Origin: Eledone cirrhosa
Taxonomy: Eukaryota
Assembly: GCA_964016885.1 (NCBI GenBank)
Contig: OZ024740.1
Coordinates: forward strand, 380,494,001-380,558,000
Length of the DNA: 64,000 bases
Direction of reading: 5' to 3'
Shown piece after piece: positions 2,889-28,581 of this stretch (position 1 is the first letter of the stretch; every line of letters begins with the position of its first letter). Under the pieces are notes generated by a model. The model did no database searches. It saw only the letters and a list, made by a program, of their open reading frames with translations, and was not told the DNA's origin. The translations under genes and the position numbers were made by a program.

Positions 2889-3167
2889 TACGATATTAAA
2901 CAAATGGAAACTATATTTATAAAACCATATTTATTTCATTATATATATTTCAGGGATATCATATTAAAAATATGGTATGCCTTCCTCAGACAAAATACAA
3001 TATATAAACCGTTTTATAAATAAATTTGACATACCTTAAACATTACAACTTCCATTTAAAAAGTTGTTGAGTGCTTTTATATCATTTAAAAACTTGTTGA
3101 GTGCTTTTATATCAGTTATAAAATATTTACTCGTTGTAACCCAACAATTTTAAATAAAACTTTTGCA
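2889..3167. mobile_element. Short inverted PLE family A terminal insertion with HHR (2932-2997, -)
   Basis: Matches the 3' end of the 10.1-13.9 kb PLE. Minus arm is tailless, plus arm is tailed; a 30-bp tandem duplication sits at the junction. Confidence 0.85.
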
Positions 3168-3758
3168 TATATTTATATATATATATTTATATATATATAT
3201 ATATATATATATATTTATATATATATATATATATATATATATATTTTTATATATATATATTTATATATATATATATATATATATATTTATATATATATAT
3301 ATATATATATATATATATATATATATATATATATATTTTATATATATATATATTTATATATTTATATATATATATATTTATATATATATATATATATATA
3401 TTTATATATATATATATATATTTATATATTTATATATATATATATATATTTATATATATATATATATATATTTATATATATATATATATATATATATTTA
3501 TATATATATATATTTATATATATATATATATATATATTTTTATATATATATTTATATATATATATATATATATATTTATATATATATATATATTTATATA
3601 TATATATATATATATTTTTATATATATATATATATTTATATATATATATATATATTTATATATATATATATATATTTTTATATATATATATATTTTTTTT
3701 TATATATATATATATATTTATCTATCTATATATATATATTTTTATATATATATATGTA

Positions 3759-4315
3759 TGTAGATAAATCTACCAAGAGTTTACGGTAGTGTCCAATCCG
3801 TATGAAGAACTCAATGTAATCTGGATATCATGGAAAGAAGAGATGCAATGAAAAATCACTTTCGGTGAAAGATAAACGGAATACAGAGTCAAGATAAAAT
3901 ATTTAAAAAATAATGAATAAAACAATGAAACAGTTCCTTATATTAAACAAAAAAAGTTCATTATTTAACGATCGTTTCTAGGATATATATGTGTTAGAAT
4001 TGGCATGCATATTCAACAGATCTATGTACAAAATTATACAAAATTATACAAACTATCAAAATTAAATATACATACCAAACACATATATATGCCGTCTTCA
4101 GAAATTTCTGAAGACGGCATATATATGTGTTTGGTATGTATATTTAATTTTGATAGTTTGTATAATTTTGTATAATTTTGTACATAGATCTGTTGAATAT
4201 GCATGCCAATTCTAACACATATATATCCTAGAAACGATCGTTAAATAATGAACTTTTTTTGTTTAATATAAGGAACTGTTTCATTGTTTTATTCATTATT
4301 TTTTTAATATTTTAT
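3759..4315. mobile_element. Palindromic PLE-like terminal insertion (family D) with two long-stem-II HHRs (3963-4105 -, 4104-4246 +)
   Basis: Fold-back centred at 4104/4105 with arms of about 210 bp. Core CTGAAGA...GAAA-cgatcg-TT. Homologous to 26102-26454. Confidence 0.75.
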
Positions 4316-4817
4316 ATATATATATATATATATATATATATTTATATATATATATATATATTTTTTTTTATATATATATTTATATATATATATATATATA
4401 TATATATATTTATATATATTTATATATATATATATATATTTATATATATATATATATATATTTATATATATATATTTATTTATATATATTTATATATATA
4501 TATTTATTTATATATATTTTTATATATATATTTATATATATATATATTTATATATATATATATTTATATATATATATATATATATTTATATATATATATA
4601 TATATATTTATATATATATATATATATATTTATATATATTTATATATATTGTTATATATATATTTATATATATATATATATTTATATATATATATATATA
4701 TATTTATATATATATATATATATATTTATATATATTTATATATATTTTTATATATATATTTATATATATATATATATTTTTATATATATATATATATTTA
4801 TATATATATATATATAT

Positions 4818-5360
4818 ATGTTTTTCATATATATTTACCTAAACTGTGATTATCTGTTTCCCTCTTTCTCTCTTAATGCTCCCCCGTTCTCTCTGTTTCT
4901 CTTACCTTCTTTCGTCCCCTCTGTCAGTTAACACTTTCTCTCGGCTGACCTCTTCCTCGCACTTCCACTCATTCGCTCTCTGTTTCTCCCCTTCTCACTT
5001 CCTCCCGTTCGCTAGTAGTGGGGTTCCTTCTTTCTCACACCGCAATCACGGCGTACGGTCTGCTTCTCTGACCGCTCATGAAATTCACCCAGTTTATGCT
5101 GATCGGATAACTATCATGATTGCTTGCTGTTTTCCCAACCTCCGGTTTGCTTTTCCTTCTGTTGTTTACTTGTCTCACTCGCTTTACGCGTTTCACTTGT
5201 CCCAATAGCTTATTTTAGTTATTGGTTGCACCAACCTGAGGTATCTGATTTTTAATGCGATGAAATACCAATGATGGTTGGCAAATCACTGATGAGGGAC
5301 TAATTTTATAATATGTAATCCATGTGCAACCATGCAGTATTCTTCTCCCCATGTCTTTCA
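4818..5360 (+). mobile_element. Family H element, copy 2
   Basis: Similar to 2172-2714. Confidence 0.8.
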
Positions 5361-5466
5361 TATATATATATATATATATATATATATATATATATATATA
5401 TATATATATATATATATATATATATATATATATATTATATTTATATATATTTATATATATATATAT

Positions 5467-25185: not shown

Positions 25186-25187
25186 AT

Positions 25188-25752
25188 ATGTTTTTCATAT
25201 ATATTTACCTAACCTGCGATTATCTGTTTCTCTCTTTCTCTCTTACTGCTTATCTGTTTCTCTCTGTTTCTTATCTGTTTCTCTCTGTTTCTCTTACCTT
25301 CTTTCGTCCCCTCTGTCAGTTAACACTTTCTCTCGACTGACCTCTTCCTCGCACTTCCACTCACTCGCTCTCTGTTTCTCCCCTTCTCACTTCCTCCCGT
25401 TCGCTAGTAGTGGCGTTCCTTCTTTCTCACACCGCATTCACGGCGTACGGTCTGCTTCTCTGACCGCTCATGAAATTCACCCAGCTTATGCTGATTGGAT
25501 AACTATCATGATTGCTTGCTGTTTTCCCGGCCTTCGGTTTGCTTTTCCTTCTGTTGTTTACTTGTCTCACTCGCTTTACGCGTTTCACTTGTCCCAATAG
25601 CTTATTTTAGTTATTGCTCGCACCAACCTGAGGTATCTGATTATTAATGCGATGAAATACCAATGATGGTTGGCAAATCACTGACGAGGGACTAATTTTA
25701 TAATATCTAATCCATGTGCAACCATGCAGTATTCTTCTCCCCATGTTTTTCA
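25188..25752 (+). mobile_element. Family H element, copy 3
   Basis: Similar to 2172-2714, with a small internal duplication. Confidence 0.8.
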
Positions 25753-26101
25753 TATATATATATATATATTTATATATATATATATATTTATATATATATA
25801 TATATATATATTTATATATATATATATATTTTTATATATATATATTTATATATATATATATTTATATATATATTTATATATATATTTATATATATATATA
25901 TTTATATATATATATTTATATATATATATATTTATATATATATATTTATATATATATATATATATATATATATATATATATATATACATATATATATATA
26001 TATATATATATATATATATATATATATATATATATATATATATATATATATATTTATATATATATATATATTTATATATATATATATATATATATATATA
26101 T

Positions 26102-26454
26102 ATAAAATATTAAACAAATAATGAATAAACAATTCCTTATATTAAACAAAAAAAGTTCATTATTTAACGATCGTTTCTAGGATATATATGTGTTAGAATT
26201 GGTATGCATATTCAACAGATCTATGTACAAAATTATACAAAATTATACAAATTATCAAGATTAAATATACATACCAAACACATATATACGCCGTCTTCAT
26301 TATTTGTTTAATATTTTATCTTGACTCTGTATACCGTTTATCTTTCACCGAAAGTGGTTTTTCATTACATCTCTTCTTTCCATGATATCCGGAATACATT
26401 GAGTTCTTCATACGGATTGGACACTACCGTAAACTCTTGGTAGATTTATCTACA
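26102..26454. mobile_element. Family D inverted terminal insertion
   Basis: Minus arm is cut inside the HHR core at about 26299; the plus arm carries the tail seen at 3759-3893. Confidence 0.8.
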
Positions 26455-26506
26455 TATATATATATATATATTTATATATATATTTATATATATATATATA
26501 TTTATA

Positions 26507-28581
26507 TACGATATTAAATAAATGGAAACTATATTTATAAAACCATATTTATTTCATTATATATATTTCAGGGATATCATATTAAAAATATGGTATGCCT
26601 TCTTCACACAAAATACAATATAAACAGTCTTATAAATAGATAGATTTGATAAATCTTACAACTTCAACTTCCATTTAAAAAGTTGATTTGGTAGTGAAAA
26701 ATGTTAGGGACAGTTATAAAAAGAAAGAAAGAAAAAAGCGAAGAAAAAGAAGAAATGCATGCAACTAAATAGAGATAGATATAGAGAGATAGATAGAGAG
26801 AAGAAATTCGTGTAAAGAAACAGAGAGAGATAGATAGAGAGAGAAAAAACACAGAGGGAGATAGATAGAGAGAGAGAGAGAGAAGAGAGAGAGAGAGAAA
26901 AAATAGAGAGAGATAGATATAGATAGAGATAGAGAGAAAGAAAATACGTAGTTGGGCACCAGTTGAATGACGTATCAATGATATATTTATTTATTTATTT
27001 ATTTAGTATCCTAAACTTTTGGAATGATTTCTGCTAGACAGGATTTGGTAAATAATTTTGGTTTTGTTTGCTTTTGATTCTGATGCTTATAATGAACTTG
27101 GCATTATATTGTCAATTAATTTTGAAGGGTTGATCTCTGTGGTTGATTTGCGGGGCATACTGTGTTTTATTTTTTATATTTTTTAATTTTTTGATATATT
27201 GATATCTGTTGTCTATTTATGCTTGAACGATAATCATGTAGAGTAAAGACAAGAATAGTATTGTTAAAATTAATGTAGATTCTATATATATTTGTGTGTA
27301 TGTACACATATATGTATACTAGAATTTTTATAGCACAATGAGAATGTTTTCATGTGAAATAGGAATTTGCAGAGTTGATCACGTAAATTCACATGGAAGT
27401 CTATAGTATCGAATCTGGGATAACCTTCTATTTTCTTTTTTCTTTTTTCTTTTTTCTTTTTTCTTTTTTCTTTTTTCTTTTTTCTTTTTTCGTTTTTCTT
27501 TTTTCTTTTTTCTTTTTTCTTTTTTCTTTTTTCTTTTTTCTTTTTTCTTTTTTCTTTTTTCTTTTTTCTTTTTTCTTTTTTCTTTTTTCTTTTTTCTTTT
27601 TTCTTTTTTCTTTTTTTCTTTTTTCATAAAAGTGCATATATACTTATGTATTTCAATTTTTTTTGAAGTTTTTTATCTCAGTTTTTTATCTCAGTTTTTT
27701 ATCTCAGTTTTTTTTTTATCTCAGTTTTTATCTCAACTCTGATATAAACCTAGGAATTCTAAACTAGACATATGATCATCATTTTTCACACATTATTGAT
27801 ACGTGTCTCATTCATGAATACTGATATTTACATTATAATACCTAATTCATACGAATTGATATTTTTACATTGATGAAACATAATGTTTTAAATCTGCCTC
27901 GTTTATGTCTGGATATTTTTCTTTTCTCTCTATGTAACGGCTGTTTTCTCTCCTAACCACATATATCTCTCTCTACCTTAATACTAGAACTAAATAAATA
28001 AATAAATAAATATATCATTGATACGTCATTCAACTGGGTGCCCAACTACCTATTTTCTTTCTCTCTATCTCTATCTATATCTATCTCTCTCTATTTTTTT
28101 TCTCTCTCTCTCTTCTCTCTCTCTCTATCTATCTATCTCCCTCTGTGTTTTTTCTCTCTCTATCTATCTATCTCTGTTTCTTTACATGAATTTCTTCTCT
28201 CTATCTATCTCTCTATATCTATCTCTCTCTATTTAGTTGCATGCATTTCTTCTTTTTCTTCGCTTTTTTCTTTCTTTCTTTTTATAACTGTCCCTAACAT
28301 TTTTCACTACCAAATCAACTTTTTAAATGGAAGTTGAAGTTGTAAGGTATGTCAAATCTATCTATTTATAAGACTGTTTATATTGTATTTTGTCTGAAGA
28401 AGGCATACCATATTTTTAATATGATATCCCTGAAATATATATAATGAAATAAATATGGTTTTATAAATATAGTTTCCATTTATTTAATATCGTAAATATA
28501 CTCCAAATACTTGTTGAGTGCTTTTATATCAGTTATAAATATTTACTCGTTGTAACCCAACAATTTAAATAAAACTTTGCA
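26507..28581. mobile_element. PLE family A (subfamily 3) 3' UTR with a 0.5-kb inverted arm
   Basis: Arms about 26507-27006 and 27990-28494. HHR at 28386-28451 intact, 26550-26615 mutated. (TTTTTC)n expansion at 27430-27625. Confidence 0.88.

Follow-up and report, generated by a model that had tools for sequence, protein, structure and literature searches.

The window, i.e., the whole stretch of 64,000 nt of Eledone cirrhosa DNA that was analysed, harbors insertions of six families (A to F) built of two inverted arms. The tailed outer end of such a two-armed insertion is referred to as T and its tailless outer end as L. The features considered below are the following:

2891..3166, family A, two-armed: (-) L arm on the left, short (+) T arm on the right; 15-bp TSD
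7215..13857, family A, two-armed: L arm 7215-10028 (-), T arm 10092-13857 (+); 15-bp TSD, by eye
10102..12320 (+), family A ORF, predicted RT with a C-terminal GIY-YIG-type nuclease: motifs RWR, DKT, CxCx5C
13662..13729 (+), family A: type I hammerhead, from a motif scan
13770..13857 (+), family A tail, 88 nt: L site after 13769, T site after 13857
13777..13796 (+), 7 nt downstream of the L site: RNA stem ACUC-CAA-loop-UUG-2 nt bulge-GAGU
18896..19346, family A, two-armed: T left, L right; arm ends at -170 and -186; 15-bp TSD
19507..23628, family A, two-armed: L left, T right; 1-nt junction overlap; 17-bp TSD
26509..28580, family A, two-armed: L left, T right; 15-bp TSD
5467..6961, family B: 2.6 units left (T end), 2.2 units right (L end); 312-nt hammerhead tandem unit; tail 35 nt
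23754..23952, family C: L left, T right; tail 23885-23952 (68 nt) with an L-site stem
3760..4310, family D: T left, L right; tail 137 nt
26105..26453, family D: L left, T right; T arm from -20
14857..15251, family E: L left, T right; tail 59 nt
16964..17737, family F: T left, L right; tail 45 nt

The arms of the insertion at 7215-13857 differ by 5 substitutions in 2814 nt and are separated by a 71-nt inverted piece (10024-10094); its ORF is frameshifted near 10734-10758. The twin of the stem at 13777-13796 is situated after the T site and occurs in read-through copies only (L136). In the insertion at 2891-3166, the arms do not overlap, given that the T arm begins 13 nt into the tail.

A first-pass annotation of this DNA had described one tailed and one tailless end in five of five insertions of family A, two of two of family D, and one each of families B and C, all of which hold at the places listed above. 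The family C breakpoint it had seen recurring at 788/847/898 and near 42637 is indeed present as an end (at 42636 in the latter case), but in one-armed fragments, not in two-armed insertions. Families E and F were absent from its list, and its view of four unrelated families had to be abandoned: the proteins of A, C and D display 41-46% identity to one another and, judging by their motifs, are related members of a single clade, the Hydra-clade PLEs. These motifs include RWK/RWR, DKT in place of DKG, a CxCx5C linker, and CxxC plus CxH near the end, along with the lack of CCHH; family G carries them in part (RWR, DKT). Among the aligned relatives, RW[KR] is present in 97/103, DKT in 94/103, YRDD in 103/103, and Y.G.T in 92/103, and the Hydra-clade families are inserted in (TA)n. 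The PLE traits found comprise partial tandems (pLTR), an inverted copy, a tail, and a hammerhead.

Database searches assigned these proteins only in part. The RT family of Pfam was not found in the proteins of A, C and D, and sequence searches of Pfam, NCBIfam and PDB returned no name for the Hydra-type proteins. The GIY-YIG family of Pfam matched C at E=0.019 (below the cut-off) and F at 5e-6. The four best PDB structure matches of the family C protein model (pLDDT 93) are TERTs; a homodimer prediction for its residues 1-490, run without an alignment, scored 0.00 and thus counts neither for nor against a dimer. Family F features DKG together with RVT_1 and GIY-YIG matches. In family E, putatively Neptune-like by its motifs, a CX2-5CxxC linker and a CCHH finger were read by eye; the nuclease core alone aligns with that of A. 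Family B is a non-coding 312-nt tandem unit with arrays in both arms and 126 exact hammerhead cores at 312-nt spacing; it appears retrozyme-like, without a known partner.

The motif scan revealed four hammerhead copies in family A, the other cores being at 28394 (+), 7313 (-), and 2989 (-); the hammerheads of B, C and D were recognized by eye in the sequence. An Rfam search found none of the A-D hammerheads, its only match being HH9 at 71-142, below the gathering score. The predicted family A cut lies 49 nt upstream of the L site. Hammerhead cleavage was rejected as a source of either end or of the arm 5' ends, since the arms routinely pass the cut at -49.

Pairing of T and L ends

The T+L pairing extends far beyond the window. 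It was recorded in 210 of the 219 two-armed insertions of the six families in Eledone cirrhosa for which both outer ends were read (A, 113/116; B, 23/26; C, 32/34; D, 27/28; E, 7/7 independent; F, 8/8). The nine exceptions are one L/L, one T/T-like, and seven T/other insertions; in all of the latter, the T arm is the constant one. Thus, the shared rule put forward in the first-pass annotation stands in all six families as a near-absolute rule but not as an absolute one. Same-type pairs are far from being as common as mixed ones: family A has two of them against 113 T/L (binomial p = 3e-31 against 50:50). A de novo scan of other families yielded one further L/L and one symmetric insertion.

Both outer ends are family-fixed and represent internal points of the element. 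The tailed arm had been thought to run to the full family terminus; the T end is not this terminus, because tandem copies read through it and continue towards the ORF. The T site resides upstream of the ORF start or inside it, and the tail between the two sites spans 35-137 nt across the six tested families.

Certain apparent deviations were reassigned. Six family A pairs that looked like L/L in pattern listings proved to be T/L: the tail of one A subfamily begins with TA repeats and matches the L pattern, so the count of 2846 includes some tailed ends. Two references were used for this subfamily. Likewise, some family D ends called "o229/o238" are T ends whose blast alignment ran into the flanking TA.

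Duplicated stem, target site and arms

In the Hydra-clade families, an RNA stem of the form RCUC...GAGY is located 6-9 nt downstream of both start points. The L and T motifs of family A are identical at 26/29 positions, the best of 1525 control windows. In A1, D and G, both sites are followed by the stem, and the T stem of family G was predicted first and then found on retrieving the sequence. At L, it was detected in 14/47 tail clusters (0.4 after shuffling, 0 on the reverse strand); 10 of these 14 possess an upper stem of 2-4 bp after the 2-nt bulge, with a different sequence in each. The 33/47 motif-less clusters include B, E and F as well as some spurious islands; in these three families the RCUC/GAGY motif was not found, though all of them follow the T/L rule. 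The T site of family C displays GCAC/GUGC without a bulge, and the T stem of subfamily A2 has one mismatch. The stems' own folding is modest (z from +0.5 to -2.1), and the L/T flank sequence duplication in C and B is not above that of control windows.

TSDs of 14-15 bp are concealed within (TA)n. Interrupted repeats on both flanks occur in 26 of the 121 T/L insertions; an informative TSD was recovered in 23/121, in 14 cases of 14-15 nt, as compared with a mean of 1.8 and a maximum of 4 for shuffled flanks. Long primer-RNA homology was rejected as a general site selector: it reaches 7/8 at both sites of A and at the L sites of B and E, and 3-5/8, i.e., background, elsewhere.

Junctions and arm lengths were counted in 70 of 105 family A insertions, the 35 not cleanly mapped being excluded. 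Junction overlaps of 1-8 nt were found in 43/70, in line with the joining of cDNAs by microhomology suggested by the first-pass annotation. The L arm reaches further in 29 insertions, the T arm in 17, and the reach is equal in 24; the T arm lies entirely within the tail in 5/70, and L micro-arms of 5-11 nt exist as well. In identical-arm copies the L/T reach bias is no different (9 vs 8). The arm 5' ends frequently fall at -200..-165 (59/140), pointing to a common run-off. Asymmetric deletion at the palindrome centre could mimic independent arm lengths.

At least nine haplotypes are present, with the arms unmixed: they were concordant in 36 of the 37 insertions in which both arms match a shared haplotype (shuffled mean 5.9, maximum 15). 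Such concordance does not distinguish one RNA from two RNAs of one source locus, and gene conversion between the arms could produce it as well.

Candidate insertion mechanism

The preferred reading, with a probability of about 0.68, is near-obligate twin priming, whereby both (TA)n 3' overhangs would prime on one RNA, one at each fixed site. The use of two fixed RNA sites and the priming by both target strands, likewise anticipated in the earlier annotation, are supported by the TSDs and by an in vitro precedent (PMC11167929). For a more elaborate version the odds seem only slightly better than even: a protein pair would read two copies of the stem on one transcript, prime, at fixed distances from these, both overhangs left by a cut staggered by 14-15 nt, and build both first strands at once, with the tail corresponding to the stem spacing and animal retrozymes using the same route. 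In both versions, we infer the single-RNA and the protein-dimer steps.

According to this scheme, the nuclease would cut both (TA)n strands about 14-15 nt apart, leaving two 3' overhangs, and two protein copies would hold one stem each, with a start point just upstream of the stem and ~2 nt of primer pairing. As each pLTR of the RNA would offer a single site of each kind, L would go to one primer and T to the other. Both polymerases would then copy towards the RNA 5' end, passing whole units if the RNA is tandem or circular; many of them would run off at a common point, hence the short palindromic stubs. Predicted positions of the RNA 5' end are close to -186 in A, -65 in C, and about -210 in D, with a 312-nt circle for B. 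Eventually, microhomology and host repair would unite the two cDNA 3' ends; if one arm stayed at about zero length, a one-armed copy would result. Still, the scheme does not fully account for why L/L and T/T are so rare, given that two pLTR copies on an RNA would bring two sites of each kind.

Twin priming might, alternatively, draw on two RNA molecules from one source locus, held by a protein dimer whose unequal subunits use L and T, respectively. This would fit the TSDs, the T+L rule and the haplotype concordance, and kilobase arm overlaps could form without one polymerase displacing the cDNA of the other; the constant T arm in the seven T/other exceptions also suggests ordered, unequal roles. 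Nevertheless, we consider it unlikely, since an extra rule is needed against both subunits using the same stem, and the arms are unmixed despite the at least nine haplotypes.

A T-primed cDNA could also prime itself and copy itself, the hairpin being resolved at L by the nuclease and the arms shortened by later central deletions. Self-priming was proposed from junction palindromes (PMC3846280) and nuclease resolution was proposed for the tail (PMC8557442); arm identity would come for free, with equal reach in 24/70 A insertions. Such copying predicts that L is contained in T, but in 29/70 insertions it is the tailless arm that reaches further, five T arms share nothing with L, and no age trend is seen. 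Moreover, L-only insertions join (TA)n directly (L104, L133, L141, L142, L240), a second copy of the same stem lies after L, and RT starts at both sites in vitro (PMC11167929), which makes this route quite improbable.

Lower still is the chance that the T end is simply inherited, with transcripts of T-ended copies entering the flanking (UA)n and pairing with the cut target, so that only L is protein-defined. In most source copies, T is indeed the end and (TA)n comes next, many T arms are long, and the T site of family A is TA-like (7/8 pairing). Yet read-through copies of A, D and G carry a conserved stem downstream of T, and B arrays break at T within continuous tandem sequence. This route may operate alongside twin priming on one RNA.

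Assembly or library artefacts are hardly conceivable: palindromes beside microsatellites are error-prone and several opposite-strand joints in raw reads rest on only 1-3 read starts, but the arms differ by substitutions, their ends are family-fixed and flanked by TSDs, and three sequencing runs of a different study each contain 5235-7915 raw reads that stop at the L site in (TA)n, along with opposite-strand joints.

Relation to known systems

In L1 elements, twin priming is occasional, the second site is variable, and the arms do not overlap. The second target strand is said to prime internally on the same RNA, with an inversion formed by microhomology and a TSD, in the scheme reportedly introduced by Ostertag and Kazazian in 2001. 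By contrast, twin priming would be the usual outcome here: both sites, including the second one, are fixed, and in most cases the arms overlap, by up to kilobases, so the L1-type pattern of a non-overlapping inverted segment with a variable second site is not what was found.

Closer parallels are provided by EN+ PLEs, which share with the present families partial tandems, an inverted 5'-truncated copy, a tail at one end, a pLTR hammerhead, and microsatellite targets; their tail of 30-40 bp has been described as "optional" or "often only at one end" (PMC8557442; PMC3846280). What differs is that the rule is counted here (210/219), the tails span 35-137 nt, and TSDs of 14-15 bp are recovered in (TA)n. 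The available passages of PMC13282606 and PMC2377424 contain nothing on end pairing. The Hydra clade, with which A, C, D and G have in common RWK/RWR, DKT, CxCx5C, the lack of CCHH, a C-terminal nuclease, a hammerhead and (TA)n targeting, was depicted as few, short (<3 kb) families (PMC8557442), whereas the families found here have units measuring 3.5-7 kb and are each represented by thousands of ends.

For PAc (Poseidon of Anolis), both strands were cut and extended in vitro from two RT start sites bounding the tail (Frangieh 2024; PMC11167929). Internal initiation at these sites, the AT-rich target, the use of uncleaved RNA, and the predicted dimer resemble the present case. The passages available from that source report neither a start site that differs by strand nor a pairing of one site with each strand, and mention no twin-priming product and no RNA element repeated after the two sites; they leave the steps after initiation unvalidated. 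The one-sided tail was already known, as were the two RT start sites that bound the tail (PMC11167929); the hidden 14-15 bp TSDs, the same-haplotype arms, the often longer tailless arm, and the duplicated stem are new.

The origin of the tandem and inverted PLE insertions and of their one-sided tail was named an open question in PMC8557442. The T+L rule, the concealed TSD and the duplicated stem turn it into specific tests, and twin priming would explain this long-puzzling insertion shape. If true, it would constitute a mode of retrotransposition with both DNA strands serving as first strands, in the sister group of telomerase, and would yield a short cis-element with the potential to guide insertions templated by RNA.

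Animal non-LTR retrozymes, similarly to family B, comprise non-coding tandem units of ~300 nt with a type I hammerhead, and their mobilization by PLEs has been proposed (10.64898/2026.07.22.740005). To this picture, family B adds a feature not reported for retrozymes in the available text of the same source, namely the PLE insertion signature of T+L ends with multi-unit arms on both sides.

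Pairing of tailed and tailless ends

In the window, part of a genome of 3.0 Gb, the first 29 kb consist of a (TA)n array that has interruptions and contains nested insertions. The two-armed insertions claimed there by the first-pass annotation (five of family A, two of D, one each of C and B) are correctly positioned, and each has one tailed (T) and one tailless (L) end facing outward, the tail being the stretch from the L site to the T site. Two further families follow this rule in the window:

14857-15251, family E insertion, T/L
16964-17737, family F insertion, T/L

At 788/847/898 and 42636, the sites reported for family C are present, but they belong to one-armed rather than two-armed insertions. 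At 763-898, three L-end fragments of this family (25-31 nt) stand in tandem with (TA)n between them, likely a local amplification of a single micro-insertion.

Elsewhere in the genome, family A was sampled by examining loci at the first 100 L-pattern and 85 T-pattern matches in 1-157 Mb of the contig of the window and at the top DNA matches; within one subfamily, such sampling recovers L/L and T/T as easily as mixed pairs. For the other families, the first 30 pattern matches and incidental copies were used, with 20 extra regions for each of B, C and D, those for C and D being picked from listed opposite-strand neighbours, blind to tail state. Solely insertions with both outer ends read were counted; two A pairs whose arms are separated by a long TA run, locus-edge ends, arms interrupted by nested elements and many ends with the partner outside the examined DNA were excluded. 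In nine pairs of C and D, an internal TA run was no reason for exclusion.

Two-armed insertions of T/L type among those counted, and exact-pattern matches genome-wide
Family A: 113/116 (105 by script, 5 by eye, 3 with L micro-arms); 2846 L-pattern matches (some of which are tailed ends from one subfamily), 1934 T-pattern matches
Family B: 23/26; 126 units
Family C: 32/34; 16398 matches
Family D: 27/28; 6716 matches
Family E: 7/7 (8 if one local duplicate is counted); 12939 matches
Family F: 8/8; 540 matches

Overall, 210 of the 219 insertions pair T with L, so that mixed pairs are far commoner than same-type pairs in the tally of breakpoints and orientations, but the rule, initially stated for every insertion, is not absolute. 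The nine exceptions comprise one L/L pair (locus L148), one insertion (L123) whose T end is joined to a second, rearranged T, and seven T ends paired with an end elsewhere. Genuine one-armed copies abutting (TA)n were found for both L and T. In a family-blind scan, 282 of 1319 TA-bounded islands were palindromic. Symmetric ends were seen in 22 of these, most of which are simple repeats or lie within larger palindromes; the real symmetric cases were L148, L406 (family G, L/L) and L051. The latter (L051:663-1322), a retrozyme-like two-armed insertion with an identical end on both sides, breaks the rule and represents a family outside the six counted. The scan also revealed many additional families, each with a fixed tail length of its own. 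In Illumina reads from three runs of a second study, 5235-7915 reads per run end at L in (TA)n, depth falls more than tenfold past T, and opposite-strand joints are present, from few read starts.

Kinship of the families and nature of their ends

The families had been called unrelated, which does not hold for A, C and D: the autonomous ORFs of C and D share 41-46% identity with that of A in protein comparison, all three carry the Hydra-clade motifs as given in section 11 of PMC8557442, and the best matches of the predicted structure of C are telomerase RTs. A fourth Hydra-type autonomous element, family G (L411:1446-1566), has an 80-nt tail, a unit of ~3.54 kb and both of the stems described below. 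Families E and F are Penelope-like elements (PLEs) of other types, aligning to A in the nuclease core only, and B is a non-coding 312-nt tandem with a hammerhead. The N-terminal part of the E ORF (locus L374) holds a long asparagine-rich insert, resembling the inserts of rotifer PLEs reported in PMC3846280.

The tailed arm was thought to run to the full family terminus; instead, tandem copies of A (L136, L111) continue beyond T and reach the 5' UTR or ORF, as do copies of C (L311), D (L338), E (L374), F (L401) and G (L411). Judging from these sequences, L and T are both internal to the element, and the tail is a segment bounded by two break points rather than something added at a terminus.

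In the Hydra-type families, a stem probably marks both sites. In family A, 26 of the 29 nt downstream of L and T are identical (the top of 1525 windows) and form RCUC-stem-loop-stem-2 nt bulge-GAGY. At a distance of 6-9 nt from the junction, the RCUC/GAGY element is also found after L in families C, D and G and after T in the latter two; the T element of G was predicted first and then found in a read-through copy. Elsewhere, it occurs once in ~18 kb of sense and twice in antisense sequence. At L, it was found in 14 of 47 tail clusters (0.4 in shuffled sequence, 0 on the reverse strand), and in 10 of the 14 the upper stem differs in sequence with pairing kept. Against the stem count its modest folding energy, the GCAC/GUGC version at T of C, the mismatched T version of subfamily A2 and the absence of the motif from B, E and F, where short hairpins were seen by eye after some sites. 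Long primer homology is not general as a site rule; TA or AT opens 11 of the 16 sites tabulated for it.

Probable twin priming and its alternatives

Target-site duplications were readable via repeat interruptions in 23 of 121 T/L insertions (interruptions on both sides in 26), 14 of them 14-15 nt long, versus an average of 1.8 and a maximum of 4 with shuffled flanks; all five A insertions of the window have a 15-17 nt duplication (one read by eye). This geometry implies two 3' overhangs, each continuous with the outer end of one arm, as two primers would give. The favoured reading has a probability of about 0.68: a staggered double cut would leave two overhangs, both would prime on one RNA, each at one stem-defined site, and the two cDNAs would be joined through microhomology. 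Twin priming in some form is highly probable. Two RNAs from one locus may serve instead of one. A 100-nt haplotype is common to both arms in 36 of 37 testable insertions (5.9 when shuffled).

Among 70 A insertions, the inner arm ends are independent (L longer in 29, T longer in 17, equal in 24, with no age-related shift in this bias), and the T arm lies entirely inside the tail in five; fold-back of one cDNA from T could yield this pattern only with later deletion. Consistent with the joining step of twin priming, junctions overlap by 1-8 nt in 43 of the 70 and by 0 in six, most others having small inserts or duplications. Upstream of the L site, 59 of 140 arm ends cluster at -200..-165, likely the RNA 5' end, and arms extend past the hammerhead cut at -49, which agrees with uncleaved RNA as substrate in PMC11167929; by analogy with that account, a protein dimer may be at work. 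In a family B insertion (L225-L231, G000:C2:297006656-297014800), one arm has 11 tandem units and the other 8, which suggests that both polymerases rolled on circular or long tandem RNA.

PLE architecture and the one-sided tail (PMC3846280, PMC8557442), as well as two start sites with extension on two strands in vitro (PMC11167929), are already described in these papers. For near-obligate T/L pairing, duplication length in (TA)n, observations that speak against self-priming, a stem present in duplicate and the T/L signature on a retrozyme, no match was found in the literature searched, older subscription literature being outside its scope. The observation is real, the element is of a known kind, and the mechanistic rule is new and testable.

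Other sequences in the window

The following features were also recorded:

1-467, final unit of a 468-nt tandem hammerhead array (also L199:8386-9999), a second retrozyme-like family; its Rfam HH9 match at 71-142 scores below the gathering score
1400-1578 and 17841-18018, second family of one-orientation inserts, boundaries alike in each copy
2173-2714, 4819-5360 and 25186-25752, first such family, boundaries alike in every copy, an identical short sequence at start and end
10024-10094, third segment (71 nt) at the junction of a 6.6-kb insertion, matching 10321-10391 in reverse complement; L175, L179 and L332 have comparable templated pieces
14812-15416, copied at 95% in L199:5418-6021, a local duplication including the E insertion
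24065-25180, LINE fragment (ORF 24415-25119), its 5' part forming a 497-bp palindrome that begins at a (TA)n run; judged by eye from its protein, not a PLE
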